The notes: generated by a model from the sequence alone, not told the origin. 64,000 nucleotides of DNA from Acidimicrobiales bacterium (GCA_963663635.2 CAXXMY010000017.1:91461-155460); one strand, 5' to 3'; numbered from the stretch's first letter, positions 28,293 to 49,415 are shown. Made by a program: numbers and translations.

Positions 28293-28315
28293 GTTCCGCT
28301 GAGCGGAACTGTTCC
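28293..28315. promoter_or_regulatory. palindromic operator candidate in the fhs / dehydrogenase divergent promoter (site 1 of 3)
   Basis: gttccgctgagcggaac (a perfect 7-3-7 inverted repeat) overlaps ggaactgttcc (5-1-5). The reverse complement matches 33738-33760 at 21 of 23 positions. Confidence 0.6.
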
Positions 28316-28420
28316 ATCATACAGAACACGGGTGGCCTGATCGGTCACCTTTGCATGCCGTACTCTGGCGGCGCCCAGAGGCGAATTTCGGTTGCATGCT
28401 TGTCTTTGGAGGGGGTTGGC

Positions 28421-30943: not shown

Positions 30944-30957
30944 ACGGGTAGGCGAGC

Positions 30958-31761: not shown

Positions 31762-32759
31762 CCGGTGTTGCCGTCCTCGTGGACCACGACCGAGGGACCC
31801 TCTCGGGAGGCGCCCTCGAAGCACTCACCGCTGCACGCTCGCTCGCGCAAGCGCTCGAAACGACCGTCGAAGCGGTGGTGCTCGGCGATACGGCGCTGTT
31901 CGAATCGCATGGGGCCGATCTTGTGGCCGCATGCGGCGCATACGGCGCTTCCGTCGTGCACCGTGGCATCGGTGACCTGCTCGCTGACTACGGACCCGAT
32001 GCCTGGGGCGCAGCGCTCAGTTCGTTCGTGGAGGCCGAGCGGCCTGTCGCGGTGACCTCGGTGGGCACCGACCGCGGCGCAGAGGCCATGGCACAGCTGG
32101 CCGCCCGGGCCGACCTGCCGCTGGTCGCCAACTGCGTGACGGTCACGCCCGCTGCGCAGAACTGGCAGATCACGCGCGTCCAATGGGGCGGTTCGCTGCT
32201 CGAGGACGTGACCCTCGAGGCGTCATTGCCGCTGGTGACCTTTGCGCACCATTCGGTCGAGGCTGAACCTGCCGACAATGCTGACGAGCCCACAGTGCGC
32301 GACTTCGAACCCGAACTGGGCCCCGACGCGGAACGAACGCTGGTACGCGACCGGGTGACGCTGACCGAAGGCGTGACGCTGGCGACCGCCTCAGTGGTGG
32401 TCTCGGGGGGGCGCGGCGTGGGATCAGCCGACGGTTTCGCCGCACTTGAGGAACTGGCTGAGCTGCTCGGCGGTCGCGTCGGGTGTTCGCGCGCGGTCAC
32501 CAACAACGGGTGGCGCAATCACGCCGATCAGGTGGGACAGACCGGCACCCGCATCGCGCCCGAGATCTACATAGCGTGCGGCATCTCGGGTGCCATCCAG
32601 CACTGGGTCGGCGCCATGGGCTCGAAGAACATCCTGGCGATCAACATCGATCCCGAAGCCAACATGGTCACCAAGGCCGGGTACGCGGTGATCGCGGACC
32701 TGCACAAGGTTGTGCCAGCCGTCTGCGACGAAATCAGGCGCCGCCGCGACCGCCCGTGA
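31758..32759 (+). CDS. etfA: electron transfer flavoprotein subunit alpha
   Basis: C-terminal FAD-binding block YIACGISGAIQHWVGAMGSKNILAINIDPEA. Its GTG start overlaps the etfB stop (GTGA). Confidence 0.9.
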   Translation: MTGVAVLVDHDRGTLSGGALEALTAARSLAQALETTVEAVVLGDTALFESHGADLVAACGAYGASVVHRGIGDLLADYGPDAWGAALSSFVEAERPVAVTSVGTDRGAEAMAQLAARADLPLVANCVTVTPAAQNWQITRVQWGGSLLEDVTLEASLPLVTFAHHSVEAEPADNADEPTVRDFEPELGPDAERTLVRDRVTLTEGVTLATASVVVSGGRGVGSADGFAALEELAELLGGRVGCSRAVTNNGWRNHADQVGQTGTRIAPEIYIACGISGAIQHWVGAMGSKNILAINIDPEANMVTKAGYAVIADLHKVVPAVCDEIRRRRDRP

Positions 32760-32906: not shown

Positions 32907-33662
32907 CTACGGGCGGGCCAGTGCCCGACCCGAGAGGTGGTTGGAGAGGTTTGCTGCGGCTTCGATGAGTGCGAGGCCGATGTCGTGGGTTCGGTTCGGG
33001 TCGGGAAACCGGTAGGCCGGGCCGTGGACGTGCAGTGCGGCGACGACCTCGCCGTCAGCGTCAAACACGGGTGCCGCCACCGAGTTGATACCAGGTGCGA
33101 ACTCCTCGTACACCCAGACGTAACCGGCGCTGCGAACCTGAGTCAGCCGTACTGCGAGCGCAGCGGCATCGGTCACGCTGTTCGCAGTGGTGGCCTCCAG
33201 CCCGCCGGCTACGTACTGCGCAATGACGTCTTCGGGCAAATGGGCCAGCCACACCAGTCCGGAGGGCACGAGGTGCATCGGGCAGTACTCGCCGATCCAC
33301 GAGCGCACCTGCACTTCGGATTCGTGCTCTACCTGGTCGAGGTAGTACACGGTCCGGTCCACACGAACGCTGACGCCTGCGGTCTCGGCCATCTGGTTGA
33401 CAAGGCCATGCAGGTGGGGTCGTGCCGCAACCACAAGGCCTCGCTCATCGCCAGAGGCACCCACGATGTCGATGAGTCCCGGGCCGATCCGGTAATCCCC
33501 GCCCGCGTCGTCCTGGGCCACCGCGCCGACGGCTTCCAATGACGTCAGCAGCCGCGCGACGGTGCTCTTCGGCAGGCCGACCTGATCGGCTACGTCGGTG
33601 ACGCCCTGCGGACCGACAGCCAATGCCCGCAGAACCGCAAATGCGCGACAAATCGACTGCAC
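32907..33662 (-). CDS. IclR family transcriptional regulator
   Basis: N-terminal wHTH (SICRAFAVLRAL....GVTDVADQVGLPKSTVARLLTSL) and a C-terminal IclR effector domain of about 250 aa in total length. Confidence 0.85.
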   Translation of the reverse strand: MQSICRAFAVLRALAVGPQGVTDVADQVGLPKSTVARLLTSLEAVGAVAQDDAGGDYRIGPGLIDIVGASGDERGLVVAARPHLHGLVNQMAETAGVSVRVDRTVYYLDQVEHESEVQVRSWIGEYCPMHLVPSGLVWLAHLPEDVIAQYVAGGLEATTANSVTDAAALAVRLTQVRSAGYVWVYEEFAPGINSVAAPVFDADGEVVAALHVHGPAYRFPDPNRTHDIGLALIEAAANLSNHLSGRALARP

Positions 33663-33737
33663 CGCCTCAAAGCTAGCCCTTGCGCGGTCGGCATTCGACA
33701 GAAGTGCTCTCGGTTGGTGTCTCGCGTGCCGTATTGT

Positions 33738-33760
33738 GGAACTGTTCTGCTCAGCGGAAC
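33738..33760. promoter_or_regulatory. operator candidate in the iclR / formate dehydrogenase divergent promoter (site 2 of 3)
   Basis: ggaactgttctgctcagcggaac. The preceding attgtggaactgt (33733-33745) is identical to 49286-49298. Confidence 0.6.
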
Positions 33761-33866
33761 GCTATGAGGGCGACTAGGCTTCAGGCTGGAGCCGGAGCCG
33801 TACGATCTGGTTTTGCAGAGCATTCATTGGGGGCAATCAGTGAGGGCTTTGCACTCGGGAGGGACG

Positions 33867-35855
33867 ATGCCACGCCGAACCACTCGGCGGCGAGACAGCC
33901 GCAACGAAGCGCTGCCTCGGCTGGAAACGCCACTCGTACGAGACGGCGGCGTGTTGCGTCAGGCGACTTGGGCTGATGCCCTCGATCAGGCTGCAACGGG
34001 CCTCGGGGCCGCCACCCAGCAGCACGGTGCAGGCGGCGTCGGCATGTTCTCGTGCTCGAAGAGCACCAACGAGATGAACTACGCAGCCCAGAAGTTCATG
34101 CGGACGGTGCTGCGCTCCAACAACATCGACTCGTGTAATCGCACCTGACACGCTCCGTCCGTCGTCGGTCTGGCGACAGTGTTCGGTCTCGGAGGCGGGA
34201 CGTGCTCCTACCAAGAGATCACCGAGACCGATCTGGTTCTGCTGTGGGGCTCAAATGCCCGCGAAGCACACCCGATCTTCTTTCACCACCTCATGCGGGG
34301 GCTCGACCGCGGCGCCGCGATGTTCGCGATCGACCCGCGCCGAACCTCGTCGGCGGAGTTCGCCGATGTCTGGCTCGGCATCGACGTCGGCAGCGACATC
34401 GCACTGGCGAACGCCGCGGGCCGAGAGATCATCAGCGCTGGTCTGCACAATCGCGAGTTCATCGATCGGGCCACCACCGGCTTTGACGCGTATGCCGCGT
34501 CGGTAGAGGAATACACGCTTGACGAAGGCGAGCGCCGCACGGGCGTCCCCGCCGACGTCATTGCCGAGATGGCACATGCCTATGCCACCGCGCCCACAGC
34601 GCAGATCCTGTGGACACTCGGCATCACCGAGCACCACACCGCCGTGGAGAACGTGCTGTCGCTGTGCAATCTGGCTCTGCTGACCGGCCACGTGGGCCGC
34701 CGCGGCTCGGGTTTGGTGCCGCTGCGAGGTCAGAACAACGTCCAAGGCGGTGGCGACATGGGCGCGCTGCCCGACCGACTGCCCGGATTCCAATCCCTGA
34801 CGGACGCCGATGTTCGGGCGAAGTTCGAGGCCAGCTGGGGCTGCGAGCTGAATCCGGTGCCCGGCAACCACCTCACCAAGATGTTCGAGGCCATGGAGGA
34901 CGGCGAGCTGCGGGCGCTCTACGTCATCGGAGAGAACCCCGCCGACTCCGAGGCCAACGTGGCCCACGCCCGCAAGCTGCTCGAAGGCCTCGACTTCCTC
35001 GTCGTGCAGGACATCTCCTTGACGCGCACCGCACGCATGGCCGACGTGGTACTGCCCGCCGCAGCCGGCTGGTCGTCATCTGAAGGCACCGTCACCTCGT
35101 CGGAGCGACGAGTGCAGCGGGTGCGTGCTGCGGTGCCGCCCCAAGGCGACGCCCGCGACGATGTGCAGATCATCGGCGATCTGGCTCGGCGGATGGGTGC
35201 TCCGTGGCCGGCCGCGTCGGCCGCAGAGCTGTGGGAAGAACTGCGCTCGCTGTCGCCGATGCACGGTGGCATGACCTGGGAGCGGTTGGAGTCCGAGGGC
35301 GGCCTGCAATGGCCGTGCCCTGATGAGGAGCACCCGGGCACCGAGTTCCTGCACGCGTGGCTCTGGGAGCCCGACCTTGCAGGGCACGAACCCGCGCCGT
35401 TCACGCTCAACGAAGATCGGCCTCCTGCTGAGTCTCTCAGCGAGGAGTTCCCGCTTCGCCTGACAACCGGCCGTGTGCTCGACTCCTACAACACCGGTGC
35501 ACAGTCCGCCGGCTATCCCTCACCGATCAGATCGGGCACTGCCATCGAGTTGAGCCGTGCTGATGCTGCGACCTACGGAATCGCGGACGGGGATTCGGTG
35601 CGAGTCACCTCTCCTCGGGGCTCGGTGGTCATGGAGGCATCCATCACTGCCAGCGTGCGCCCAGGACTCGTGTTCACGACGTTCCATTTCCCCGAGCTCG
35701 TGGACCTGAACGTGCTGACCAACGACGTGTGGGACCCACGCAGCGGCACGGCTGAATTCAAGGCGGCTGCGGTGCGCATCGAACCGCTGTCGAGCGCGGC
35801 CAGCCAACGAACTGGCGGCGGAACGAGTGCAGCAGCAGGTGGTGGCGGTGGCTGA
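33867..35855 (+). CDS. fdhA: formate dehydrogenase catalytic (molybdopterin) subunit, C-terminal portion of a canonical FdsA/FdhA, with in-frame TGA 34146-34148 read as selenocysteine
   Basis: ORFs 33813-34148 and 34179-35855 share one frame and are separated only by the TGA. The context NNIDSCNRT-U-HAPSVVGLATVFG aligns with E. coli FdhF NNVDCCARV-U-HGPSVAGL. The downstream molybdopterin-oxidoreductase blocks are intact. ATG 33867 is preceded by GGGAGGGA. Confidence 0.8.
34161..34177 (+). promoter_or_regulatory. SECIS-like hairpin 12 nt downstream of the UGA
   Basis: GUCG-U-C GGUCU(G) G-CGAC forms a stem with a bulged U and a GGUCU apical loop. This is the same architecture as the E. coli fdhF SECIS apex (GGU-U-GC AGGUCU GCACC). 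Confidence 0.6.
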
Positions 35856-37755
35856 CCTGCGTTTCTCCGACGCCGAGCCCACTGCGACAGAACGCCGAGC
35901 AGTGATGGAGGCGCTCGAGACTGCGACCGACAACGGGATGTCCGCACAGTATTCCCCGCAGCCCGCACCGGCGCCCGGTAAGCCCACAATGGCCCAGAGC
36001 GAGATTGCGAACGGGTCGGTGTCGCCTTCAGGTGAGATGCGATCTGGCGTCGCGGCCGTTGTGGTCGTGCACCCGCGTGTGGTGCGAGGCGGAACCCGGC
36101 GGCGCAAGCGGCTGCGGCACCTGCTGTTGCCGGCGCTGCACGCCTTGCAACGGGAGGCGGGGTGGATCTCCCCAGGCGGGCTGAACTTCGTGGGACGCCA
36201 GCTTGGAGTGCCCCCGGCCGAGGCCTATGGCGTCGCAACGTTCTACGACATGTTCGCCACAGAGCAGCCCACGCATGCTGAGAGTGTCTGTCACGTGTGC
36301 GTCGACCCGATCTGCGCGCTCGCCGGTGCGAGCGATCTAGCGGAGCAATTGCGCTCGCAAGGCCGCCAAGTCCATCTCGGGCCGTGCCTGGGCCAGTGTG
36401 AGCGTGCTCCCGCCACGTTCATCCAAGGCCGCGGCGAACCTGACCGGGTGCCTGCCGATGCCAATGAGTCGAATTCGCTCGTTGCAAGCGTGACAGCGGA
36501 CGCTCCCGGCGCCCCGTCTCTGCTGCGACGCATGCTCACCGACGATGTGGGCCGGCCGCCTTCTGCTGAGAGCTTCACCATGGACGCCTACCAGCTGCGC
36601 GGCGGGGGAGAGGCCCTCACGGCGGCGCTGCGAATGGGCCCCGACGACGTCATCTCTGCGGTCACCGCTGCTGGACTCTCGGGCCGCGGGGGTGCTGCGT
36701 TCCCCACCGGCATCAAATGGCGAGCGGTTGCAGACGGCAGCGGCCCGAAGCATGTCGTGGCCAACATCGACGAATCAGAGCCTGGCACGTTCAAGGATCG
36801 GCTGTTGTGCGAACGCGATCCGCTGGCCGTGATCGAGTCGATTGCGGTCGCAGGCTTGGTGGTGGGCGCAGAGCACGGATGGATCTACATCCGGGGCGAG
36901 TACCCGCTGGCCACCCAGCGCCTCCGAGAGGCCATCACCGCCGCACGTGTGCACGGCTGGCTTGGCGACGACGCCGCAGGCTCGGGCCAGCGCTTCGACA
37001 TCGAGCTGCGCAGAGGCGCCGGCGCCTATATCTGTGGCGAGGAAACGGCCCTGTTCAACTCACTCGAAGGATTCCGGGGCGAGCCTCGCAACAAGCCTCC
37101 GTTCCCGACCACGAACGGGCTGTTCGGTCGACCGACCGTGGTCAACAATCCCGAGACGCTGCTCAATGTGTCCGAGATTCTCAGAATCGGCCCCGATGGG
37201 TATCGCAGCGTGGGAACGCAAGGCTCGCCGGGCGCGAAGCTGTTCTGCCTGTCGGGGCATATCGGCCGCCCAGGGCTGTACGAGGCGCCGTTCGGCATGC
37301 GGCTCGGCGATCTGCTGGAACTGGCCCACGGAGTGCAGGGCACGCTGCGAGCGGTGCTGCTCGGCGGTGCGGCCGGGAGCTTCGTGGGGCCAGAGGCGCT
37401 GGAGCTGCCGCTGTCGCTCGAGGACACCCGCGCTGCGGGAACGACGCTGGGCTCGGGACCGGTGATGGTGTTCAATGACAGTGCCGACATGAGCGCTGTG
37501 GTGCAGCGGTTGGCGCAGTTCTTTCGGGACGAGTCGTGCGGACAGTGCGTGCCGTGCCGTGTCGGAACGGTGCGCCAGCACGAGATCGTCACCCGCATTC
37601 GCGACAGGGGCGCCGCATCGGGGCGTGAACTCGAATTGATCTCCGACATCGCAGCCGCGATGGGAGACGCCTCGATATGCGGCCTCGGCCACACCGCAGC
37701 GTCCGCCGTGGTCTCGGCGCTGCGGCTCGGCTTGCTGGAGGATGCAACGACATGA
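35827..37755 (+). CDS. fused NuoE-like (2Fe-2S) and NuoF-like (FMN/NAD/4Fe-4S) diaphorase subunit of NAD-dependent formate dehydrogenase (FdsG-FdsB fusion)
   Basis: NuoE block: YGVATFYDMF ... CVDPIC ... GPCLGQCERAP. NuoF blocks: GLSGRGGAAFPTGIKW, ESEPGTFKDR, CGQCVPCRVG. Candidate GTG starts lie at 35827-35848 and overlap the upstream stop. Confidence 0.85.
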   Translation: MQQQVVAVADLRFSDAEPTATERRAVMEALETATDNGMSAQYSPQPAPAPGKPTMAQSEIANGSVSPSGEMRSGVAAVVVVHPRVVRGGTRRRKRLRHLLLPALHALQREAGWISPGGLNFVGRQLGVPPAEAYGVATFYDMFATEQPTHAESVCHVCVDPICALAGASDLAEQLRSQGRQVHLGPCLGQCERAPATFIQGRGEPDRVPADANESNSLVASVTADAPGAPSLLRRMLTDDVGRPPSAESFTMDAYQLRGGGEALTAALRMGPDDVISAVTAAGLSGRGGAAFPTGIKWRAVADGSGPKHVVANIDESEPGTFKDRLLCERDPLAVIESIAVAGLVVGAEHGWIYIRGEYPLATQRLREAITAARVHGWLGDDAAGSGQRFDIELRRGAGAYICGEETALFNSLEGFRGEPRNKPPFPTTNGLFGRPTVVNNPETLLNVSEILRIGPDGYRSVGTQGSPGAKLFCLSGHIGRPGLYEAPFGMRLGDLLELAHGVQGTLRAVLLGGAAGSFVGPEALELPLSLEDTRAAGTTLGSGPVMVFNDSADMSAVVQRLAQFFRDESCGQCVPCRVGTVRQHEIVTRIRDRGAASGRELELISDIAAAMGDASICGLGHTAASAVVSALRLGLLEDATT

Positions 37756-37765
37756 GCACACCCCG

Positions 37766-38710
37766 ATGAGCGAAGCAATGGCCGCGACGCCAGCCACCCA
37801 GACACCGGCCTTGGGGATTCCAGCATCAGAGTCCCCGGCCTCGGAAACCCGGGCAGTCACCTTGACCGTGGACGGTGCAGAAGTCTCGGTGCCCGCTGGG
37901 CAGACCGTGCTCGCAGCGTGCAACGCGGCGGGTGTTTCGACTCCCACGATCTGCTGGGCGCCCAATCTCACACCGGTCAACGTCTGCCGAGTGTGCGTGG
38001 TGGAGCTCGAAGGCTCCCGGACCCTGGTGCCCGCCTGCTCTCGGCCCGCAGAAGACGGCATGGCGATCAGCACGGACTCCGAACGGGTGCGCCACAGCCG
38101 CCGGATGGTGCTGGAGTTCCTCGGTTCTGCCAACGATCTCAGCCAGGCCACCGAGATCAACGACTGGTCTGCGGAGTACGGCGCCGACCCGGATCGCTAC
38201 GACATGGCTGAGCGGGTCGACGAGCCCGTGCGCGTTCAGGACGAGCTGTACATCCGGGATTACGACCGCTGCGTCCTTTGCTACAAGTGCGTCGAGGCCT
38301 GCGGTGACGACGCCCAGCACACGTTCGCGATCGCAGTGGCGGGACGCGGCTTCGGCGCCCGCATCCGCACCGAGTACGACATCGAACTTCCAGAATCGGC
38401 GTGCGTGTATTGCGGGAATTGTGTCGCTGTTTGTCCGACCGGGGCCTTGCAGTTCCGAACCGAATTCGATCTTCGAGCCGTGGGGGAGTGGCGCCCCGAT
38501 TCCCAGACCGTCACCCGCACCGTCTGCTCGTACTGCGGCGTCGGCTGCAATCTCGACCTTCACGTCCAGGACGAACGCATCGTGACGGTCACCTCGCCCG
38601 CTGACCACTCGGTTACGAGCGGCCATCTGTGCATCAAGGGGCGATTCGGATGGCAGTACGTCCACGCCCCCGCCTTCGAGCCCCCAGCGCCTGACGCAGC
38701 GGGGCAATAG
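37766..38710 (+). CDS. formate dehydrogenase alpha subunit, N-terminal Fe-S portion (2Fe-2S, 4Fe-4S ferredoxin motifs, Mo-bisPGD 4Fe-4S cap) encoded as a separate gene
   Basis: CRVCVVE, CVLCYKCVEAC, CVYCGNCVAVCPTGAL, CSYCGVGCNL and GHLCIKGRFG motifs. It ends right after GRFGWQYVH, which is where the gene at 33867 picks up (RLETPLVR). Confidence 0.8.
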   Translation: MSEAMAATPATQTPALGIPASESPASETRAVTLTVDGAEVSVPAGQTVLAACNAAGVSTPTICWAPNLTPVNVCRVCVVELEGSRTLVPACSRPAEDGMAISTDSERVRHSRRMVLEFLGSANDLSQATEINDWSAEYGADPDRYDMAERVDEPVRVQDELYIRDYDRCVLCYKCVEACGDDAQHTFAIAVAGRGFGARIRTEYDIELPESACVYCGNCVAVCPTGALQFRTEFDLRAVGEWRPDSQTVTRTVCSYCGVGCNLDLHVQDERIVTVTSPADHSVTSGHLCIKGRFGWQYVHAPAFEPPAPDAAGQ

Positions 38711-40950: not shown

Positions 40951-40987
40951 ATGCCGTGGCGCTCAAACGCCCCTGTCGGGCGATGGG

Positions 40988-43040
40988 TCAGGGCTCTTCG
41001 TGTATGCGCACGGTGTAGCTGCCGTCTTGCTCGGCGAGCACGGCCACCCGGTAACCCAGCACGCTGAGCGAATCCCCCGTCTGAAGCAGCGGGTACCCCT
41101 CAATCGTGCGGTCCTCGTCGCCTGCAACCTTGAGCGGTAGCGAGTGCAGGCCTGAATCGACGGTGTACACGAGGACGCGAACGGCACCCACTGGTCCCGT
41201 TCGACGTTGCGTCGTGCCTCGACGACGATCACCCTGCGATTGTCGACCGACACCGCCGCCATGAGCGTGTCGTTGCCCTGCAGCGCCTCGGGGTCAATAT
41301 GGACCAAGGCATCGGGCTCTTCGATGCAGCTGTAGATCGACAGACCCATGATCCCGAAGTCGGACGCGACGAGCACCGTGCCGTCCTTGCGCTCGGGCCG
41401 TTCGCTGTGGCCATCGCCGTCCAGGTCGGCCAAGCCGAAGATGTGCAACAGCTCGAGTGCTGCGGCCCAGCCATTGGCGGTGATCTGGCGAGTCTCAGTG
41501 TGGTGCGTCACGTTCATGCGCATCGTGGGCACGGTCCGACCGCCGACGTCAATGTTGCCGGTCGCAGTGGCGATCGAGAATTGATCGCCCGGGAAGATCG
41601 TCATGACCGCGTCAATGTCGGAGAAATCGAGCTTGCCGGCGCTCGCGTCTTCGAGGTATTCCTCCATGTAGGGGACGCTCTCGGCGACTTCGGCATGGGT
41701 GCTGTGGCGAGCTTGCGTGTTGGGGAAATCGACGAAGAGCACCGCCAGCCGAACGGTGCCCACAGCAGAGGGCGACCACACGGGCGAGTAGCCCCAGGAG
41801 TTCGTCGCTGTGATCTGTGTGAGGCTCTTGCCCGAGGCATCCATCGTCATGAGGTACGTGCCGTGATCGCCGTGATCGCCCGGGCCGCTGTCGTCGAAGA
41901 ATCGCCTGAATGCGATCGTTGAGCCATCGGGTGACCAGGACACACCCCGGTCGTGAAAGGTGCCGTCGGTCAGTTGCTTCTTGCCGCTGCCATCGATGTT
42001 GATGACCCAAATGCTGGCACGCCAATCTCCATCGCCGTGCTGCTCGAATGCGTAGGCGATCTTGTTTCCGTCGGGTGACCACGCGAGGTAGAAAGCCGAT
42101 TGGTCTGGCAGCAGTTGAGTGGGCGGGTCGGTCGCCGCACCGCCGCATGAGCCGGCGGGAAGCGCTGCTGGCGCTGTGCCATCGTCGGTGTTGCCGCTGC
42201 TGTCGCCATCGCCTGTGTCGACCGTGGTGATCGGCCTGCCGAGATACTCGGACAGTGCCGCGTCGGAAACGGCTGCGTTGCCGCCGAACACCGTGAGCTC
42301 GATGCCGTCGCTGCCGACGGCAGTTCGTGCCGAATCCATGAACCCAGCCGTCTCGACGGGTATGGCCTGCGGATCGACCAGCACCAACGGTGCACACAGA
42401 CGTGCAAGCAACGGACCGGCACTGAACGAGTAGAACGGCACGCGCGCCCTGGCCAAGCCGATGTGCTTCCGGCCGAAGCAGTCGCCGGCCGAAGCGTCGC
42501 CGTAGCGACCTTGCACTAGCTCGGCAGCCTTGATGGCTGTGTCGTAACGGGTGGCTCCGGCCAGCCGGGTCACGGTCACGCCGAGCCCGGTGAGCGAGTC
42601 CTCGACCCCCGCGCTTAACGCAGCAGTGCCGCCCATCAGCACCACATGGTCCACAGATGCGCTGCTGAGATAGGAGACCACCTCGGGATGCAGTCGGTCT
42701 CGCGGGGTCAGCAGCACCGGATGGCTGCCGCGCGCTGAGAATGGTCCTGCTACGAGCGCGTCGGCGAAGACCTCTCCGCTGGCCACAACAGCAGTCCGGC
42801 CCAGCCCGCTCATGACGCCGACGTCGCCCGGGTCGCTGGACCTGCTGCGCAGGAATCGCCCGAGCTTGCGCGCAACAGCTGCACCGGTGGCGTACCGATC
42901 GGCCCCCGAAACCCGTTCGGACGAAATGCCGAGCGACGACAGTGCGTCGGTAACGCTGTCGCTGACGCGGGCATCTGGATCTGAATCAGGCGCCTGGGTG
43001 TCGATGACCAGCACGTTCGAGACCCCGGTGAGATTCCGCC
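40988..43040 (-). pseudogene. decayed surface-protein gene: starts mid-CWB2 repeat (no signal peptide), then PD40 blades, an M6 (InhA)-like metallopeptidase-like domain and a C-terminal beta-rich domain; frameshift near 41185-41200
   Basis: The coding-like sequence begins immediately after the mttB-like stop, within a repeat. The C-terminal part continues in ORF 40988-41191 in another frame. The HExxH position reads LELLH. Confidence 0.6.
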
Positions 43041-43051
43041 CAGTGTGAGAG

Positions 43052-44593
43052 CTACACGAGAGCGTCGGGTTCCTCGGCCTTGCGGCGGGCGATGTAGTCG
43101 CGGAGCTCCTCATCGATGGCGTCATCGATCGGCGGTGCTTCGTAGTCCGCCAGCATTCGCTTCCACACCACATTGGCGCGTTGGGCCGCGTCGAGCGAGC
43201 CGTCGTCGGACCAACGCTCGAAGCTGTTGTTGTCTGCGATGGAGGACTGATAGAAGGCCGACTCGAAGTTCTCCAACGTGTGCGCGTGTCCCAGGAAATG
43301 GTTGCCGTGAGGGTTCGTGAGGAACGCTTCGACGGCCTGCCCGTTGGGCGACATGTCGATGCCCTTGGCGTAGACCTCCATCATTCCGAGCTGGTCTGCG
43401 TCCATAATGAGCTTCTCGTAGCTCAGTGCCAGGCCACCCTCGAGCCATCCCGCTGCGTGCAGCACGAAGTTCACGCCCGCTGACATCGTGGGCAGCAGCG
43501 TGGATGCCGATTCGTACGCCGCCTGCGCATCGGGAGCTTTGGAGGACGTGAACTGCCCGCCGGAACGGAACGGCAGTCCGACGCGCCGCGCGAGCTCTGC
43601 CATGACGTAGATGGCCAAGCCCGCCTCGGGCGTGCCGAACGTCGGGGCTCCGGTCGCCATCGACATCGATGAGGCGAATGTTCCAAAGATCACCGGTGCG
43701 CCCGGGCGCACCAGCTGGCAGAACGCCATGCCCGACAGCGCCTCGGCCAGGCACTGTGCTGCCAGTGCAGCCACCGTGACCGGCGACATCGCCCCCGCCA
43801 AGATGAACGGCGAGATGACGCATGCCTGGTTGTGCCGTGCATAGACCTCAGCGGACTCCAGCATCGTCGCATCCCAGCGCAGCGGGGACGACGCATTGAT
43901 GAGGCTGGTGAGCACCGTGCGGTCGCCCAGATCACCACCGAACGCGATACGGCACAGCTCGACCGAATCCTCGGCTCGCTTCGCAGCGGTGACCGAGCCC
44001 ATGAGCGGCTTGTCGCTGTACCGCAGATGGGAATACACCATGTCGAGGTGGCGCTTGTTCACCGGCACATCCACCGGCTCGCACACGGTGCCGCCGCTGT
44101 GGTGCAGGTGGGGGAGCATCCACGTCAGCTTCACCACGTTCTCGAAGTCGGCCAGCGTGGCGTAGCGACGACCCTCGTCGAGGTCGGTCACGAACGGCGA
44201 TCCGTAGTTCGGCGCAAATACCGTCGCGTCGCCGCCGATCGGCACGGACCGCGCCGGGTTTCGGGCGTGCTGAATGTATGTGGAGGGCGCGTTTTCTTGG
44301 ACGATCTGCCGGCACATTCCGCGGGGAAATCGGACGAGCTCCCCATCGACATCGGCACCCGCGGCGCGCCACAGCTCCAACGCACGGGGGAATTCCTGAA
44401 AGGCGATGCCCACCTCGGACAGGATCGTCTCGGCATTCGCCTCGATCTGGGCCAGGCCGGCCTCGTCCAGCACACTGACCGGCGGCAGCCTGCGGGTCAG
44501 GTGCGTGTTGGTGACGGCGTCACTGGCCGCCCGCCTGGCCTGGCGGGCCGCCCTGCCGCCTTCTCGTCGTCGTGTCCGCTGGCTCATGTTCAC
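43052..44593 (-). CDS. MttB-superfamily methyltransferase, non-pyrrolysine type (quaternary amine:corrinoid methyltransferase candidate)
   Basis: Full-length uninterrupted ORF of 513 aa with MttB-family blocks (VLDEAGL..I...A..IL.E.G, GSPFV.D, GGTVCEP, SPLRWD, INFVLHAAGWLEGGL). No in-frame TAG. Start is GTG 44593 or ATG 44587. Confidence 0.8.
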   Translation of the reverse strand: MNMSQRTRRREGGRAARQARRAASDAVTNTHLTRRLPPVSVLDEAGLAQIEANAETILSEVGIAFQEFPRALELWRAAGADVDGELVRFPRGMCRQIVQENAPSTYIQHARNPARSVPIGGDATVFAPNYGSPFVTDLDEGRRYATLADFENVVKLTWMLPHLHHSGGTVCEPVDVPVNKRHLDMVYSHLRYSDKPLMGSVTAAKRAEDSVELCRIAFGGDLGDRTVLTSLINASSPLRWDATMLESAEVYARHNQACVISPFILAGAMSPVTVAALAAQCLAEALSGMAFCQLVRPGAPVIFGTFASSMSMATGAPTFGTPEAGLAIYVMAELARRVGLPFRSGGQFTSSKAPDAQAAYESASTLLPTMSAGVNFVLHAAGWLEGGLALSYEKLIMDADQLGMMEVYAKGIDMSPNGQAVEAFLTNPHGNHFLGHAHTLENFESAFYQSSIADNNSFERWSDDGSLDAAQRANVVWKRMLADYEAPPIDDAIDEELRDYIARRKAEEPDALV

Positions 44594-44686
44594 TCACTCA
44601 TTGGTTTGCATCGTCGTGTATTCGATCTTGTGTACCGGGTCTCGCCTGCCTTGAGACCACAACACTTGAGGCGACTTGCCTGCGCA

Positions 44687-46804
44687 TCACCGGCTCCGTC
44701 GGTGCCGGGAACGTCGTCGGGCGCTCGTGTCGGAGGGCGTGCGCGCATCAGCGCCCACCGGAACTGTGCGATCAGGCAGCTCGATTGCAGTGCCAAGCAG
44801 CGGATTCGACGCTGTCGCATGCGGGAGCGCCATCGCGGACACGAACAGCTCCTGAAATCGCGGCTCGGTTGCTGTCTCGATCTTGCGGATTTCTCTGACG
44901 ACGGACTCCATCTCAGCGCGCTGAGCGCCCGAGAGCAGCGCACGCACGGCACCTGTTCCGGCCGCATTGCCCACCGAGCGCACCGCTTCGGGCTTGCAGT
45001 CACCGATCAGCCCCAACACCATGGCGCGCACAGGGTCGATGTGGGCACCGAACGCTCCCGCGAGCTGGACCTGCTGGGGAGACCCGATGCTGGCGCGCTC
45101 GCACAACAGATCGATGCCCGCACGCAACGCCGCTTTGGCCAGCTGCACTGCCCTGACGTCGTTCTGGGTGACCGTGATGGTCGGACCGGCGCTGTGGGGG
45201 GGCGGCTCGTAGACCACGTAAGAAAACGTACGACCGTCGGCGATCACCCGCGCCGAGCGCTCGTCGGACGCCGGCGGCGCAGCGATGACTCCCTGCGCCG
45301 AGAGCACTCCGGCGAGGAACATCTCCGCGATCACTTCGATGATGCCCGAGCCGCAGAGGCCGGTGACGCCGGCGGCCGCGGAGCGCGAGCCGACAGCCAC
45401 CACGCGTTCCACCGCATCGTCGAAGCCGGGCTCGTCGGACCACAGCTCACAGCCAATCACCCGAAAGCGCGGCGCCCATGTCTGCGGGTCGATGCGCACG
45501 CGCTCGATTGCACCAGGGGTGGCTCGCAGCCCGCAGCTGATTTGCGCTCCCTCGAACGCGGGCCCTGTCGGACTCGACGCAGCCCACAAGCCCGCCGAGC
45601 TGCCCAGCACGATCTCGGCATTGGTGCCGACGTCGACCAGCAACGTGATTTCGTCGCTTCGATGAGGGCCGCCGGCGAGCACCGCGGCGGCGGTGTCGGC
45701 GCCCACGTGCCCCGCAATGGCGGGCCCGACATACACGCGTGCGGCCGGGCACGGAAGCCCGAGGTGGGGACCTTCGACTTCCACCGGGGCATCGGTGGCG
45801 AGCGTGAACGGCGCCTGCCCCAGCGGAGTGGGATCGATGCCCAAGGCGATGTGGATCATGATCGGGTTCCCGACCAGGACCACCTCGACCACCGTGCCGG
45901 GATCAGCCCCGGCATCGGTGCACAGTTCGACGACGAGCTCGGCGAGTGCATTACGCACGAGCGCGGTGAGCTCCGCATCGCCGCCGGGGTTCATCATCAC
46001 GTAGGACACCCGGCTCATCAGGTCCTCGCCGAGCCGGATCTGAGGATTCATGCGTCCCGCCGAGGTCAGCACCTCGCCGGTATGCAGATCGACGAGGTGG
46101 CCGGCCAGCGTGGTGGATCCGATGTCGACGGCGATGCCCAGCGCCGCGGTGACAACTCCCGGCCATACCGCCGCCAGTAAGCCGGTGCGGTTCAGGGGTC
46201 CTGCGCCGCTCCAGCGCACAGCGGCAGTGACGAGACCATCGCCCGCTGCGACGGCGCTATGGAGTCCTCCCAGCACCGACGGCAGCGTGCCGCTGACTCC
46301 GACGTTCCATTCGGCGCGCAGCTGCTCGATGACGATCTGGGCGAGGCCACGGCGCTCGTCCAGCGTCGGCGCCGCAATGTTGACCGCGTGCAGCGTGGTC
46401 ATCGGGTCCAGCACGATGTCGCCGACATCGATCGACTTGCGCACCACTGGACCGTGCAGCTGACTTTGCGGGGGAACGTCAAGCACGGCATCGGAGCGAA
46501 TGGCGGCTTGGCAGCCCAAACGTGCCGTCGACTCGAGCGGTCGGCGGCCCGCATAGGCAGCCTCGGTCTCATTCGAACCGCTGAGGGCGGCAGCGGTGGC
46601 TTCGATTGCCCACTTGGGGAACGATCCCAGCGACGGCACAACTTGGCACCGGCCGCAGATGCCGCGGCCGCCGCAGACGCTGTCGAGGTCAACGCCGAGC
46701 ATCCGAGCCGCGTCGAGCACAGTGGTGCCTTGCGTCACGGCACCCGAACGCCCCGACGGCGTGAACACGACGCGTGCTTCCCGAGCGTTCGATCCCGGCG
46801 TCAT
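44687..46804 (-). CDS. RACo-type reductive activator of corrinoid enzymes (N-terminal plant-type 2Fe-2S ferredoxin plus ASKHA ATPase/DUF4445)
   Basis: C-x4-C-x2-C ferredoxin motif (CGGRGICGRCQV ... LGCQA), then an ASKHA-like region (DIGSTT, VDVGTNAEI, GPAFEG). Start is ATG 46804 or ATG 46864. Confidence 0.8.
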   Translation of the reverse strand: MTPGSNAREARVVFTPSGRSGAVTQGTTVLDAARMLGVDLDSVCGGRGICGRCQVVPSLGSFPKWAIEATAAALSGSNETEAAYAGRRPLESTARLGCQAAIRSDAVLDVPPQSQLHGPVVRKSIDVGDIVLDPMTTLHAVNIAAPTLDERRGLAQIVIEQLRAEWNVGVSGTLPSVLGGLHSAVAAGDGLVTAAVRWSGAGPLNRTGLLAAVWPGVVTAALGIAVDIGSTTLAGHLVDLHTGEVLTSAGRMNPQIRLGEDLMSRVSYVMMNPGGDAELTALVRNALAELVVELCTDAGADPGTVVEVVLVGNPIMIHIALGIDPTPLGQAPFTLATDAPVEVEGPHLGLPCPAARVYVGPAIAGHVGADTAAAVLAGGPHRSDEITLLVDVGTNAEIVLGSSAGLWAASSPTGPAFEGAQISCGLRATPGAIERVRIDPQTWAPRFRVIGCELWSDEPGFDDAVERVVAVGSRSAAAGVTGLCGSGIIEVIAEMFLAGVLSAQGVIAAPPASDERSARVIADGRTFSYVVYEPPPHSAGPTITVTQNDVRAVQLAKAALRAGIDLLCERASIGSPQQVQLAGAFGAHIDPVRAMVLGLIGDCKPEAVRSVGNAAGTGAVRALLSGAQRAEMESVVREIRKIETATEPRFQELFVSAMALPHATASNPLLGTAIELPDRTVPVGADARTPSDTSARRRSRHRRSR

Positions 46805-46817
46805 CGCCAGGGCCTCG

Positions 46818-47753
46818 CTATCCAGTGCGCGCCTGGCGACCGCCGCGACGTCGCGGCCGCTCACCCGGTGCAGTGCCTCCCGACGCTGTGCCGCCGGCTC
46901 TTTGAGTGTTCCTGATCCTGTACTCCGCGATCCACGCGGCGCAGTTCTGATCGTTGCCCGCGAGAACGTCGCCGGCCATCACCGCGGCCTTTACTTCGGC
47001 GTGGAGCGGGTTCATAATGGCCGATGTCATTCCGGCTCCGATGGCCATAGCCAGGTACGTGCCGGTAATGATGTTGCGATTCGGCAAGCCGAAGCTGACG
47101 TTGGATGCACCGCACGTGGTGTTGACGCCCAGCTCATCGCGCAGGCGACGCACAAGGTGAAAGACCTGACGACCTGCTGTTGCCATTGCGCCGATTGGCA
47201 TCACCAACGGATCCACCACGACGTCGTGTGCGGGAATGCCGTAATCCGAAGCAGCATTGACGATGCGGCGTGCCACCTCGAAACGGACATCGGGATCCAT
47301 GCTGATGCCAGTCTCGTCATTGGAGATGGCCACGACTGCGGCACCGGCGCGCGCCACCAGCGGCAGCACGCGTTCCATCACCTCTGCCTCGCCGGTCACA
47401 GAGTTGATGAGCGGCTTGCCGACGTAGGCATCCACGCCGGACTCGAGGGCCTCGATCACGGACGAGTCGATGCAGAGGGGCACGTCGGTCACCGACTGCA
47501 CCAGCTTCACCGCCGACGCCAGCAGAGCGGGCTCGTCAGCGAGCGGCACACCCGCATTCACGTCAAGCATGTGAGCGCCGGCAGCAACTTGTGCGAGGGC
47601 ATCGGCCTCCACCCGGCTGAAGTCGCCCGCACGCATTTCTTCGGCAAGCAGCTTGCGACCCGTCGGGTTGATGCGTTCGCCGATCATCACGAACGGCCGG
47701 TCGAAGCCGATGACGACGTCACGGGTTGCAGAACTGATGACGGTGTCGGTCAT
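46818..47753 (-). CDS. methyltetrahydrofolate:corrinoid methyltransferase (pterin-binding, MtrH/AcsE/MetH-like)
   Basis: IGERINPTG, DVNAG, INSV and GASNVSFGLP pterin-binding-domain blocks. Its ATG overlaps the upstream stop (ATGA at 47750-47753). Confidence 0.85.
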   Translation of the reverse strand: MTDTVISSATRDVVIGFDRPFVMIGERINPTGRKLLAEEMRAGDFSRVEADALAQVAAGAHMLDVNAGVPLADEPALLASAVKLVQSVTDVPLCIDSSVIEALESGVDAYVGKPLINSVTGEAEVMERVLPLVARAGAAVVAISNDETGISMDPDVRFEVARRIVNAASDYGIPAHDVVVDPLVMPIGAMATAGRQVFHLVRRLRDELGVNTTCGASNVSFGLPNRNIITGTYLAMAIGAGMTSAIMNPLHAEVKAAVMAGDVLAGNDQNCAAWIAEYRIRNTQRAGGTASGGTAPGERPRRRGGRQARTG

Positions 47754-48472
47754 GCGAGCATCTCGGCGCGCTCGCGCCGCGACGGCGCCGCGACGCTCAC
47801 CATGGTGTCGCGAAGCTCGCCGTAGCCCGTCTCGACGATCACCAGCGGAAGGCCGAGGCGCTCGGCTCCCGCTCGTGCACATGCCTCGACGCGGACTCGT
47901 TCAGTCTCGTCGAGCGTCTGGGTCAGCAGGACGACTCGCTCGTAGTTGCCGAAGTACATCTCTGCGAGCTCGGGGTGCGCCTCGATGCCCAAGCCCTTCC
48001 ACACGAGCAGGTCAAAGTGACGCGCGAGGTAGTCGGTCAGGTAGAAGGTTGCGGGCTCGGCATCGTGCATTGCGGCGAAGCGGCCTGCGCCTGCGTAGAA
48101 CTCATAGCAGTGCGCTCCCGGCATCATCGACATCCGCGGTCCTTCGCCGGCTGCGTGCGCGGCCTCGAACTCTCGGCAGAGGTCCTCGAGCGATCCAGCG
48201 GTTCCGCAGTCGGCATACCCCAGCAGGATCTGTGCGTACGACTTGCCCTGCTTGCGGAGTCGGGCCAGCCGCTCGCGAACCGCGCCGGCAATCAACGCCG
48301 GGCGATTGTGCAGCTTGGCGGGCAGACATTCCACGTCGACGTTGACGAGACCGTGGTGGCGCACCACCGCTTGCATCTCGTTGACCAACGCGCCGCACCC
48401 AAGGACCAGAGTGCGCTCGACGTCCCCTTCGGCGTAGGGCATCGTCGCCAGCGGAGCGCTCATTGAAGTCAC
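47750..48472 (-). CDS. DUF1638 domain protein (recurrent neighbour of corrinoid methyltransferase genes; function unknown)
   Basis: LGCGAL...LHNRP...LGYADCGT pattern. Embedded in the operon with 1-4 nt gene junctions. Confidence 0.7.
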   Translation of the reverse strand: MTSMSAPLATMPYAEGDVERTLVLGCGALVNEMQAVVRHHGLVNVDVECLPAKLHNRPALIAGAVRERLARLRKQGKSYAQILLGYADCGTAGSLEDLCREFEAAHAAGEGPRMSMMPGAHCYEFYAGAGRFAAMHDAEPATFYLTDYLARHFDLLVWKGLGIEAHPELAEMYFGNYERVVLLTQTLDETERVRVEACARAGAERLGLPLVIVETGYGELRDTMVSVAAPSRRERAEMLA

Positions 48473-48473
48473 C

Positions 48474-49226
48474 TCAGGTTGCAGCGGCGCGGCGCGCCCG
48501 GATCAGATCGGTGGCGGTCTCCGAGGCGACTGCAGCGTCGCGGCAGTACGCATCCGCGCCGACTGCTTCGCCGAACTCCTGGTTCAACGGCGCCCCGCCC
48601 ACAATCACCAAATAGTCGTCACGCAAGCCCTTCTCGATGAGGGTGTCGACCACCACTTTCATGTAGGGCATCGTCGTAGTGAGCAGCGCCGACATGCCCA
48701 AGATGTCGGGTCGGTGCTCGTCGAGGGCTGCGAGGAACTGGTCGATGTCGGTATTGATGCCCAGGTCCACGACTTCGAAGCCGGCTCCTTCGAGCATCAT
48801 CCCGACGAGGTTCTTGCCGATGTCGTGGATATCGCCCTTGACGGTTCCGATGACGATCTTTCCGATGGGCTCCGCTCCGGTCTCGGCAAGCAGCGGACGC
48901 AGAATCGCCATGCCTGCCTTCATCGCGTTCGCCGCGAGAAGCACTTCGGGCACGAAGAGGATCCCGTCCCGGAAGTCGATCCCGACGATGCGCATGGCCT
49001 CAACGAGTGCCTCGTTGAGCACCTTGTCAGCCCCCCAGCCGCGGCCCAGCAGCAAATTGGTGCCCTCCACGATTTCGGGTCCGAGACCGTCGTAGAGATC
49101 ATCGTGCATCTGGGCAATGAGATCGTCGTCGTCGAGTTGAGAGAGATCGATCTCCTCGTCGACGTCGGCATCGGTTGTGCCGAGTGTTGACGTGTCGGCC
49201 ACGCCCCGTCCCCTCGTCATCGCCAT
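48474..49226 (-). CDS. corrinoid (cobalamin-binding) protein, MtgC/MtbC-like
   Basis: B12-binding cap helix region plus the DxHxxG motif (GDIHDIGKN) and the SALLTTT / GGAPL blocks. ATG 49226 is preferred; the longer ORF would run through the operator motif. Confidence 0.85.
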   Translation of the reverse strand: MAMTRGRGVADTSTLGTTDADVDEEIDLSQLDDDDLIAQMHDDLYDGLGPEIVEGTNLLLGRGWGADKVLNEALVEAMRIVGIDFRDGILFVPEVLLAANAMKAGMAILRPLLAETGAEPIGKIVIGTVKGDIHDIGKNLVGMMLEGAGFEVVDLGINTDIDQFLAALDEHRPDILGMSALLTTTMPYMKVVVDTLIEKGLRDDYLVIVGGAPLNQEFGEAVGADAYCRDAAVASETATDLIRARRAAAT

Positions 49227-49278
49227 AGCGAAGTCAAGCCGATCTCGACCCAACCCGCCGTGAGAAACCAATTTTATG

Positions 49279-49300
49279 GTTCCGCATTGTGGAACTGTGC
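49279..49300. promoter_or_regulatory. operator candidate upstream of the corrinoid-protein operon (site 3 of 3)
   Basis: gttccgcattgtggaactgtgc. It shares attgtggaactgt with site 2, and the downstream gcgttacggta resembles cgttaccgtaacg next to site 1. Confidence 0.5.
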
Positions 49301-49415
49301 CGCACAACGGCACAAAGCGTTACGGTATCACGAACCTCGCTCAAACGGCGACATCCCGAAGCAGCCCATTGCGCCCACGCCGGACGGGCTCAGCGCTTGC
49401 GCAACGAGGCGATCT

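Follow-up and report, generated by a model that had tools for sequence, protein, structure and literature searches.

The minus strand of a 64,000-nt stretch of DNA (the window) from an Acidimicrobiia bacterium carries five genes that raise two questions: which methyl donor does this corrinoid-dependent methyltransferase system serve, and what does the DUF1638 protein encoded in its midst contribute? The host has an aerobic-type genome, its closest relatives being Candidatus Poriferisodalis MAGs. We interpret the locus, with a probability of roughly 75%, as encoding an MtgBCD-type methyltransferase system that passes methyl groups from a quaternary amine to tetrahydrofolate by way of cobalamin, with DUF1638 and RACo helpers and a shared regulon.

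In the order of transcription, the genes code for a putative MtgC-like corrinoid protein of about 242–250 aa (48474–49226; longest ORF, 48474–49313), a DUF1638 protein of 237 aa (47750–48463; longest ORF, 47750–48472), a putative pterin-binding methyl-corrinoid:tetrahydrofolate (THF) methyltransferase related to MtgD, MtgA and MeTr (311 aa; 46818–47753), a putative RACo-type ATP-dependent reductive activase of corrinoid proteins (44687–46804), and a non-pyrrolysine MttB-superfamily methyltransferase resembling MtgB (511 aa; 43052–44587; longest ORF, 43052–44593). ORF translation and profile searches recovered the five co-directional ORFs with the domain content and order given in the first-pass annotation, and the domains of all five bear out its view that the operon serves corrinoid-dependent methyl transfer and includes a dedicated activase of the RACo type. 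Reading of the junction sequences also corroborated the claimed ATGA overlap of the DUF1638 and methyltransferase genes (47753–47750) and the 13-nt gap between the TAG of the latter (46818) and the ATG of the RACo gene (46804); the public call for the RACo gene uses the alternative start GTG 46864, resulting in a 47-nt overlap with the methyltransferase gene. The claimed 1-nt gap between the corrinoid and DUF1638 genes (corrinoid TGA, 1 nt, GTG 48472), in contrast, is more likely a 10-nt gap, since ATG 48463, with its GAGGTG Shine-Dalgarno sequence, is the better start; the public gene call also predicts 237 aa. Due to a RACo-MttB gap of 93–99 nt, the MttB gene is less tightly coupled to the operon. 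Such tight spacing of the other genes supports co-transcription and translational coupling, rather than the stoichiometric co-translation proposed in the annotation.

The corrinoid protein consists of a B12-binding_2 cap (PF02607) and a Rossmann B12-binding domain (PF02310), and its translation contains DIHDIG (DxHxxG), SALL and GGAP motifs; B12-binding_2 and B12-binding domains together with DxHxxG define membership of the methyltransferase-cognate corrinoid proteins. Its scores are below the NCBIfam cut-offs for MtgC (NF047996, 206 vs 370; NF047995, 165 vs 310). It shares 52–92% sequence identity (median, 77%) with the products of the corrinoid genes that precede DUF1638 in 79 related loci. 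The pterin-binding methyltransferase was identified by PF00809 (E 7e-26) and NF005719 (352.6 bits vs a cut-off of 259). The activase comprises, in this order, a [2Fe-2S] ferredoxin domain (Fer2, PF00111), RACo_linker (PF17650), Raco_middle (PF17651) and the ASKHA ATPase domain RACo_C_ter (PF14574), each scoring above its cut-off; in the NCBIfam profile search it stayed below the equivalog cut-offs of AcsV (298 vs 800) and RamA (114 vs 500). Judged from its sequence, it is a reductive activator of the RACo/RACE type, predicted to reduce Co(II) to Co(I).

The MttB protein matches PF06253 over profile positions 1–499 of 500 (E 3.4e-220). Its 513-codon ORF is uninterrupted, with neither an internal stop nor an amber codon, and its score of 262.5 bits does not reach the cut-off of 525 for TIGR02369, the equivalog model of the pyrrolysine trimethylamine (TMA) enzyme, in agreement with its assignment to the non-pyrrolysine branch in the first-pass annotation. 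Among PDB entries, the best match is 4yyc (656 bits, E 2e-196, full length, aligning end to end), annotated as “putative trimethylamine methyltransferase”; matches to 2qne (putative methyltransferase; E 1.5e-113) and 9yce (glycine betaine methyltransferase; E 3.7e-113) score about 383 bits. We take 2qne to be the earlier crystal structure of MtgB from Desulfitobacterium hafniense; for residue comparison, its index corresponds to native numbering + 16. The betaine-contact residues of the D. hafniense enzyme are Y97, R312, H348 and F356 (PMC13080624). Three of the four are kept in the MttB protein, as Y128, R341 and H377, while F356 aligns with G385, with W381 located nearby. Glycine betaine is the probable substrate. 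A betaine transporter gene of the BCCT or ABC type was not found in the window, the transporter genes present being of the MFS and EamA types.

A palindromic operator with the consensus GTTCC-N7-GGAAC connects the operon to other genes of the window. Upstream of the corrinoid gene it occurs in tandem (49279–49313), as GTTCCGCATTGTGGAAC at 49279–49295 and a copy with two mismatches at 49297–49313. Since the latter lies within the conserved operator, GTG 49313 is disfavored as the corrinoid start, which is probably ATG 49226 or GTG 49202. Pattern searches located two further tandem operators, one between the formate-THF ligase gene and the divergently oriented gene of dimethylglycine dehydrogenase (28293–28309 and 28311–28327), the other between the IclR regulator gene and formate dehydrogenase genes (33726–33760). 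Altogether, the window contains 7 matches, as compared to 1.8 expected, and none of 100 shuffles reached 7. The IclR-family protein (32907–33662, minus strand; HTH_IclR and IclR_C) is a candidate repressor or activator. A dimethylglycine or sarcosine dehydrogenase-like enzyme with DAO, FAO_M, GCV_T and GCV_T_C domains is encoded on the plus strand (28421–30943) and followed by the genes of ETF beta and alpha (30952–32759), whereas the minus strand codes for formate-THF ligase (26477–28285; PF01268, E 2e-242) and an MTHFR-like protein (25511–26476), the latter with a weak match to PF02219 (E 6e-6) and one to TIGR00676 (2e-10). The operator probably unites the operon, the dimethylglycine dehydrogenase/ETF genes and the genes of formate-THF ligase, IclR and formate dehydrogenase in one regulon; binding by the IclR protein is a prediction.

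Conservation of the locus was surveyed in the best 80 of at least 598 DUF1638 loci, a set outside which the distant members from archaea and Firmicutes fall. A corrinoid-protein gene directly precedes DUF1638 on the same strand in all 74 loci of this set with upstream sequence (from Actinomycetota, Chloroflexota and Pseudomonadota), at a spacing of about 200 nt or less in 72 of them. The outcome named as refuting in the first-pass annotation, a lack of conserved linkage between DUF1638 and corrinoid proteins, was thus not observed, and the suggestion that DUF1638 is a real component of the system is well supported by this linkage. Where these loci offered enough downstream sequence (55), the methyltransferase gene was present in 47, the RACo gene in 48, and the complete five-gene order in 26, a recurrence far beyond chance. 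DUF1638 always adjoins the corrinoid gene in the surveyed loci, whereas its distance to the activase gene varies. MttB is collinear in 30 relatives of the set, followed directly by an MTHFR-like gene in 10 of these 30. The dimethylglycine dehydrogenase, ETF, formate-THF ligase, MTHFR-like and formate dehydrogenase genes are syntenic in relatives. Still among the best 80 of at least 598 loci, 14 contain dehydrogenase homologs with an identity of 50% or more, in most cases oriented divergently to the corrinoid gene; an IclR homolog divergently adjoins the corrinoid gene in 10 and is found anywhere in the locus in 19; and the operator motif precedes the corrinoid gene in 26 of 74. A small PF13769 gene, sometimes fused to DUF1638, follows it in 67 of the 80 relatives, but is absent at this position from the present lineage.

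The DUF1638 protein matches PF07796 with 79.4 bits (gathering score, 27; E 3.6e-22). In the alignment of homologs C23, C86, C119 and H52 are invariant and C46 and H118 almost so; in an AF2 model (pLDDT 88, pTM 0.80), the invariant cysteines and histidine are positioned at the C-terminal ends of β-strands. Neither a fold search (E ≤ 1e-3) nor a sequence search of the PDB yielded a match, and a recognizable cofactor motif, including the classical Fe-S spacing motif, is absent from the protein. The statement that DUF1638 has no assigned function applies to its mechanism alone: DUF1638 mutants of Phaeobacter inhibens are methionine auxotrophs that lack B12-dependent methionine synthesis, and across Alphaproteobacteria the presence or absence of DUF1638 tracks that of a RamA-like activase with which it co-occurs (Price et al. 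2018, PMC5764234); DUF1638 and RamA were listed as predicted cobalamin-recharging factors of MtgBCD (Mausz et al. 2025, PMC12478193). Because cofactor motif and structural relative are lacking, the assignment of DUF1638 as a helper to the corrinoid protein is a guess, bounded by gene adjacency, genetics in another phylum, and residue conservation.

In the cycle that we propose, the MttB-family enzyme would remove a single methyl group from glycine betaine, with Co(I) of the corrinoid protein as acceptor, generating dimethylglycine and methyl-Co(III), and the pterin-binding methyltransferase would pass the methyl group on to THF. Oxidation of Co(I) would yield inactive Co(II), for whose re-reduction the RACo-type activase would employ its [2Fe-2S] cluster and ATP hydrolysis. 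DUF1638 may act directly on the corrinoid protein or together with it while the cofactor is loaded, processed or reactivated, its site probably being formed by the three invariant cysteines and the conserved histidines. Dimethylglycine could then be channeled to the dehydrogenase and ETF encoded in the same window, and methyl-THF to the MTHFR-like enzyme, formate-THF ligase and formate dehydrogenase for C1 oxidation. Points that speak against this reading are the glycine in place of F356, the absence of a BCCT- or ABC-type betaine transporter gene from the window, and the scores of the corrinoid protein and activase below the curated NCBIfam cut-offs.

Other substrates have to be weighed against glycine betaine. 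Automated names of MttB homologs, as in the Pfam family name and the annotation of 4yyc, would make the cluster a TMA methyltransferase system; this is highly improbable, considering the lack of an in-frame UAG/pyrrolysine codon, the score of 262 vs 525 with the TMA-enzyme model, a match to Methanosarcina barkeri MttB that is merely E 6e-32 and covers part of the protein, and a methyl acceptor enzyme of the THF rather than the CoM type. That MttB demethylates another quaternary amine, such as carnitine, proline betaine, gamma-butyrobetaine or choline, appears unlikely. Family membership does not reveal specificity in the MttB superfamily, one of the two aromatic betaine-contact residues is not kept (PMC13080624), bacteria with MtgC often possess several MttB paralogs (PMC12478193), and sponge tissue is known to contain carnitine (PMC9999580), which is relevant if, in keeping with its genus name, the lineage lives in association with sponges. 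However, the equivalents of Y97, R312 and H348 are kept, characterized non-betaine members being devoid of the aromatic pair (PMC13080624), and the co-regulation of a dimethylglycine-type dehydrogenase and ETF, which adjoin the locus in 14 relatives, makes sense only with dimethylglycine as product.

A second set of alternatives concerns the core of the operon. Corrinoid protein, DUF1638, pterin methyltransferase and activase might mainly represent a split cobalamin-dependent methionine synthase, with its homocysteine module encoded elsewhere and MttB as an add-on; in Phaeobacter and Ruegeria the core is of dual use, methionine synthesis in these roseobacters requiring MtgC, MtgD and DUF1638 (Price 2018, PMC5764234; Mausz 2025, PMC12478193). 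The 70–72% identity of the corrinoid protein to the products of the DUF1638-adjoining corrinoid genes of two Rhodobacterales loci (L058, L080) and the loose coupling of MttB fit this possibility, but the scanned ORFs of the window revealed neither a homocysteine S-methyltransferase domain nor an MtgE homocysteine-binding module, the operator is common to catabolic genes of dimethylglycine and C1 oxidation rather than biosynthetic ones, and MttB is collinear in the 30 relatives mentioned. We regard methionine synthesis as a rather doubtful main function, though it is compatible with betaine demethylation, the two not being exclusive. DUF1638 might also be an Fe-S electron-transfer partner feeding the [2Fe-2S] cluster of RACo instead of a factor acting on the corrinoid protein, in line with its three invariant cysteines and one almost invariant, and with its tracking of the activase; the invariable adjacency to the corrinoid gene, at variable distance from the activase gene, and the absence of the classical Fe-S spacing motif make such a role improbable. 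In addition, RACo of Carboxydothermus hydrogenoformans and RamA of M. barkeri, both homologs of the activase, reportedly function in vitro without a DUF1638-like partner.

Returning to a helper role of DUF1638 for the corrinoid protein, we tentatively raise the possibility, on balance a speculative one, that it is a bacterial cobalamin-handling protein of a new fold class, thiol- or metal-centered and paired one-to-one with MtgC-type corrinoid proteins. By loading, processing or holding the cofactor, it might enable a RACo-type activase to maintain Co(I) in oxygen-exposed cells. PF13769 proteins would be its partners in most lineages, and the present lineage would be a natural minimal version without PF13769.

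The novelty implied by the first-pass annotation was overrated, because the whole system type is already in the literature, for Desulfitobacterium (2014), Phaeobacter (2018) and Ruegeria (2025); new details are the operator-linked regulon, the absence of PF13769 from the lineage, and the three invariant cysteines of a DUF1638 protein without a solved structural relative. Ticak et al. (2014) are said to have described MtgABC of D. hafniense as a glycine betaine:THF methyltransferase. That system likewise combines a non-pyrrolysine MttB homolog, a corrinoid protein and a methyl-THF-forming methyltransferase, and three of its four betaine-contact residues recur here; to our knowledge, DUF1638 has not been reported with it. 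The present MttB protein, in contrast, is far nearer to 4yyc than to 2qne and 9yce and has F356 replaced, and the corrinoid protein remains below both NCBIfam MtgC models. With 4yyc, its closest solved structure, for which the depositor annotation names no tested substrate, the MttB protein shares a GWLEGG segment and a basic N-terminal extension. The activase has the same domain order as RACo of C. hydrogenoformans, which together with Methanosarcina RamA represents the RACE family, but falls below the AcsV and RamA equivalog cut-offs, and instead of CoFeSP it presumably serves a small corrinoid protein of the MtgC type, with DUF1638 alongside.

The roseobacter MtgBCD(E) systems of Ruegeria pomeroyi and P. 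inhibens (PMC12478193, PMC5764234) involve the same five protein types, i.e., MtgB, MtgC, MtgD, a ferredoxin-ASKHA activase and DUF1638, the latter likewise encoded next to the corrinoid gene (PGA1_c13350/c13340, SPO2160/SPO2162). Genetic work demonstrated that MtgC and MtgD are required for betaine demethylation, and MtgB homologs, RamA and DUF1638 were induced on betaine (Mausz 2025, PMC12478193). Measured against the criterion of that study, the present locus contains MtgB, MtgC and MtgD homologs, a RamA-like activase and DUF1638 in a single operon, and the genes of later betaine catabolism and C1 oxidation are co-located and have an operator in common with it. An aerobic host and nearby genes of betaine catabolism and THF-linked C1 oxidation are common to both. 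The present locus differs by lacking MtgE, as far as the scanned ORFs of the window show, and a PF13769 gene after DUF1638, by its apparent regulation via an IclR-type operator, and by the organization of the five genes, which are scattered in the two roseobacters but form one compact operon in this actinobacterium.

Five consecutive open reading frames (ORFs) occupy the minus strand between positions 43052 and 49313 of the window, which has an overall G+C content of 66%. Domains were assigned to each of them by Pfam and NCBIfam, in agreement with the five-gene operon proposed in the first-pass annotation. In order, they encode a corrinoid protein (48474–49226) with B12-binding_2 and B12-binding domains and the motif DIHDIG in its translation, a DUF1638 protein (47750–48463; PF07796, E 3.6e-22), a pterin-binding methyltransferase (46818–47753; PF00809, and NF005719 with 353 bits versus a cut-off of 259), a RACo-type activase (44687–46804; Fer2, RACo_linker, Raco_middle, and RACo_C_ter) whose C-terminus is arginine-rich (ARRRSRHRRSR, encoded at 44687–44770), and a full-length MttB homologue (43052–44587; PF06253, E 3e-220). 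In systems of this family, the methyl group of the substrate is transferred to Co(I) and from there to tetrahydrofolate (THF), and the RACo-type protein reduces Co(II) in an ATP-driven reaction.

Base-by-base inspection of the junctions verified the ATGA overlap joining the DUF1638 and methyltransferase genes, and the activase ATG at 46804, 13 nt past the methyltransferase TAG; one public call places the activase start at GTG 46864. The proposed 1-nt gap between the corrinoid and DUF1638 genes is probably wider. The corrinoid TGA is indeed followed by one base and a GTG, but the ATG at 48463, located 7 bases past a GAGGTG Shine-Dalgarno sequence and leaving a gap of 10 nt, is the likelier start of DUF1638, and public gene calls also place the start there. 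The MttB gene is separated from the preceding activase gene by 93–99 nt. The corrinoid gene most likely starts at 49226 or 49202, because the segment 49297–49313 belongs to a conserved operator. Since the five ORFs and their junctions are otherwise as read, the earlier observation is confirmed with small corrections; it is real and its interpretation is correct, except that “stoichiometric co-translation” exceeds what gene spacing can show.

The nearest sequences to all five proteins stem from Candidatus Poriferisodalis and other metagenome-assembled genomes (MAGs) of Acidimicrobiia, with identities of 69–95% in three of the related loci (L001, L002, and L005). Upstream of the operon lies proS, and downstream a gene coding for a CWB2/PD40 surface protein. 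The latter is one of three large predicted surface proteins (16671–19724, plus strand; 21646–23652 and 40963–43173, minus strand) in which PD40 beta-propeller or cadherin domains accompany CWB2 repeats for cell-wall binding. At 40963–43173, the longest ORF shares about 120 nt with the 3' end of the MttB gene; the start of this protein therefore probably lies further downstream.

A whole-library search yielded 1192 clusters of DUF1638 relatives at 50% identity. Gene neighborhoods were surveyed in species-representative genomes, using a profile of 32 diverse DUF1638 members and retaining the best 80 of at least 598 matches; neighboring genes were counted by tblastn with the window proteins. The 80 loci derive from Acidimicrobiia and other Actinomycetota, Chloroflexota, and Alpha-, Beta-, and Gammaproteobacteria, besides single MAGs labelled Myxococcales and Acidobacteriota. 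A corrinoid gene is located directly upstream of DUF1638, on the same strand, in all 74 loci with at least 800 bp of upstream sequence, and within about 200 nt in 72 of them. The linkage which the first-pass annotation had expected to be conserved in other genomes is, among these best 80 of at least 598 matches, close to the strongest that a gene pair can show. Where at least 6.5 kb of downstream sequence were available (55 loci), the pterin methyltransferase gene followed in 47 and the activase gene in 48 cases, and the full five-gene order was present in 26. Across the surveyed loci, conservation is highest for the corrinoid protein (median identity 77%) and lowest for DUF1638 (median 47%). 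A homologue search seeded with the distant DUF1638 protein P0263 and aimed at archaeal or Firmicute members retrieved alphaproteobacterial-type proteins only.

A gene of about 100 codons, whose product carries the motif YWRDIPAQV...RFQxAIDRAA and matches PF13769 (“Virulence_fact”) with E of about 1e-20, occurs in 67 of the 80 loci, in most of them directly past DUF1638 (e.g., positions 10636–10956 of locus L024). In the database protein P0151, DUF1638 and PF13769 are naturally fused. The PF13769 gene was not found in the window by tblastn (E above 0.08). Locus L009 and the loci of Poriferisodalis type (L001, L002, L003, and L005) lack it as well; there and in the window, DUF1638 directly abuts the methyltransferase gene. 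A literature search found no paper mentioning PF13769. Seventeen proteobacterial loci (including L018, L020, L023, L029, L039, L054, and L079) contain two genes inserted between the PF13769 and pterin methyltransferase genes, namely a Cys-rich MetV-like gene (FDCxMCGQC...CPMNCPKNLRNGPCGG) and a MetF-like gene of the methylene-THF reductase type, both named by motif only; tblastn detected neither in the window. The database protein P0260 (298 aa) shows B12-binding_2 and B12-binding domains and a partial DUF1638 match overlapping the B12 domain; it could be explained either as a natural fusion of a corrinoid protein with DUF1638 or as a gene call with a frameshift.

The segment from 25.5 to 38.7 kb of the window contains genes coding for an MTHFR-like protein, a formate-tetrahydrofolate ligase (FTHFS), a dimethylglycine or sarcosine dehydrogenase-like enzyme (start ATG 28421; DAO, FAO_M, and GCV_T domains), the beta and alpha subunits of an electron transfer flavoprotein (ETF), an IclR regulator, and pieces of an NAD-type formate dehydrogenase (FDH), i.e., genes for the predicted consumption of dimethylglycine and methyl-THF. 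Two intergenic regions, the one preceding the corrinoid gene and the one separating the ligase from the dehydrogenase gene, contain the palindrome GTTCC-N7-GGAAC. Allowing at most one mismatch, seven copies occur in the window, as compared to 1.8 ± 1.3 in shuffled sequences, none of 100 of which reached seven. Five of the seven fall in three promoter regions: a tandem pair at 28293 and 28311 (18 nt apart, span 28293–28327) between the ligase and dehydrogenase genes, a second pair at 33726 and 33744 (likewise 18 nt apart, span 33726–33760) between the IclR and FDH genes, and a single copy at 49279 upstream of the corrinoid gene. A copy with two mismatches at 49297, spotted by eye and outside the seven, is again 18 nt from its neighbor, so that this pair is situated 53–87 nt upstream of the corrinoid start. 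Tandem pairs at three promoters point to a common regulator for the operon and the dimethylglycine dehydrogenase/ETF, FTHFS/MTHFR-like, IclR, and FDH genes. Among the related loci, 26 of 74, all of actinobacterial or Chloroflexota type, have the operator no more than 350 nt ahead of the corrinoid gene, against a background density of 0.05 copies per kb, and in 10 loci an IclR homologue is divergent from and adjacent to the corrinoid gene. Judging from these sequence patterns, a single IclR-controlled regulon probably unites the operon with the downstream catabolic genes. Two related loci, L010 and L063, have an operator pair also between the activase and MttB genes. An Rfam scan of the window matched no family, and hence no cobalamin riboswitch; scans for sigma-70 promoters and terminators gave match numbers no higher than in shuffled sequences.

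The FDH genes (33768–38710, plus strand) are unusually arranged, in that the molybdopterin catalytic part is placed first, followed by a NuoE/NuoF-like fusion (35827–37755), while the N-terminal Fer2_4/Fer4/Molybdop_Fe4S4 module forms a separate last ORF (37742–38710). The alpha-like gene (33867–35855, plus strand) contains an in-frame TGA at 34146–34148, in the context SCNRT-TGA-HAPSVVGL, which is presumably the selenocysteine site of FdhH-type enzymes. The part past the TGA scores 536 bits on TIGR01591, starting from profile position 130, and a SECIS-like hairpin downstream of the TGA was no better than those in shuffles; the gene may code for a selenoprotein or be a pseudogene.

The MttB homologue lacks an internal stop and reaches 262 bits, versus the 525-bit cut-off of the model for the pyrrolysine-containing trimethylamine enzyme, as expected from its previous assignment to the non-pyrrolysine branch. 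Its best relatives of solved structure are 4yyc (E 2e-196), followed by 2qne and 9yce (about 1e-113), the Methanosarcina enzyme being a far weaker match (6e-32). Its N-terminus is a basic extension, QRTRRREGGRAARQARRAA (encoded at 44500–44587, minus strand), and 4yyc has one too. Glycine betaine serves as an important osmolyte and nutrient. Four betaine-contact residues, Y97, R312, H348, and F356, have been identified by mutagenesis and from a ligand-bound structure, and family members acting on other quaternary amines lack the aromatic pair (PMC13080624). Three of the contacts are kept in the window protein (Y128, R341, and H377), whereas F356 corresponds to G385, which a tryptophan precedes by four residues. 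Because of these three residues and the apparently co-regulated dimethylglycine dehydrogenase/ETF genes, which are syntenic in 14 relatives, glycine betaine appears to be the most likely substrate, with a probability of roughly two in three.

DUF1638 members down to 32% identity share invariant C23, C86, C119, H52, P55, and several glycines, besides nearly invariant C46 and H118, in the motifs ACGAL, CLPAxLHNxP, YADCGTGG, PGAHCYEF, FYLTD, and HPEL. In a confident AlphaFold2 model (pLDDT 88, pTM 0.80), beta-strands alternate with helices, and the conserved Cys and His residues come right after strands 1–4. The strand ends are the usual ligand-binding edge of such folds, so that these residues would be predicted to cluster. 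Foldseek comparison of the model with the PDB gave no match at E ≤1e-3; the best one, DR2241 (2jh3; E 8e-3, TM 0.25), is too weak. A profile search against PDB sequences returned zero matches, and a search of 32 members against Pfam at E ≤10 did not reveal a second recurrent family. B12-dependent methyl transfer in roseobacters requires DUF1638 (PMC5764234). The data fit a protein acting on its corrinoid partner or on the cofactor of the latter, and cofactor loading or processing, electron transfer, and scaffolding are all compatible with them; we infer that DUF1638 is a corrinoid-protein maintenance factor. The modestly interesting part is its mechanism, together with that of its usual partner PF13769, and clarifying what DUF1638 does would add a missing piece to our understanding of bacterial upkeep of protein-bound cobalamin under oxic conditions.

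Systems of this type have been described before. MtgB of Desulfitobacterium, a non-pyrrolysine MttB homologue, is a glycine betaine:corrinoid methyltransferase (Ticak 2014; Picking 2026, PMC13080624). The split B12-dependent methionine synthase of Phaeobacter inhibens requires a ferredoxin-ASKHA “RamA-like” protein and a DUF1638 protein, encoded beside the B12-binding protein gene, for which the authors offered no mechanism (Price 2018, PMC5764234). In Ruegeria pomeroyi, both betaine demethylation and methionine synthesis require the corrinoid protein MtgC and the pterin-binding MtgD, and MttB-family proteins, RamA, and DUF1638 increase on betaine; the corresponding genes are grouped in operons in other taxa, and actinobacteria contribute about 5% of marine mtgC reads (Mausz 2025, PMC12478193). 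MtgBCD was recently proposed as a main oceanic route of glycine betaine demethylation, and one that would raise the demand for vitamin B12. The locus widens the known host range and, as a complete system in one operon of an Acidimicrobiia lineage with a readable regulon signature, provides a compact template for reconstitution. With the gene content, order, coupling, conservation, and operator observed here, it is a compact actinobacterial example of the published MtgBCD-type system rather than a new system.
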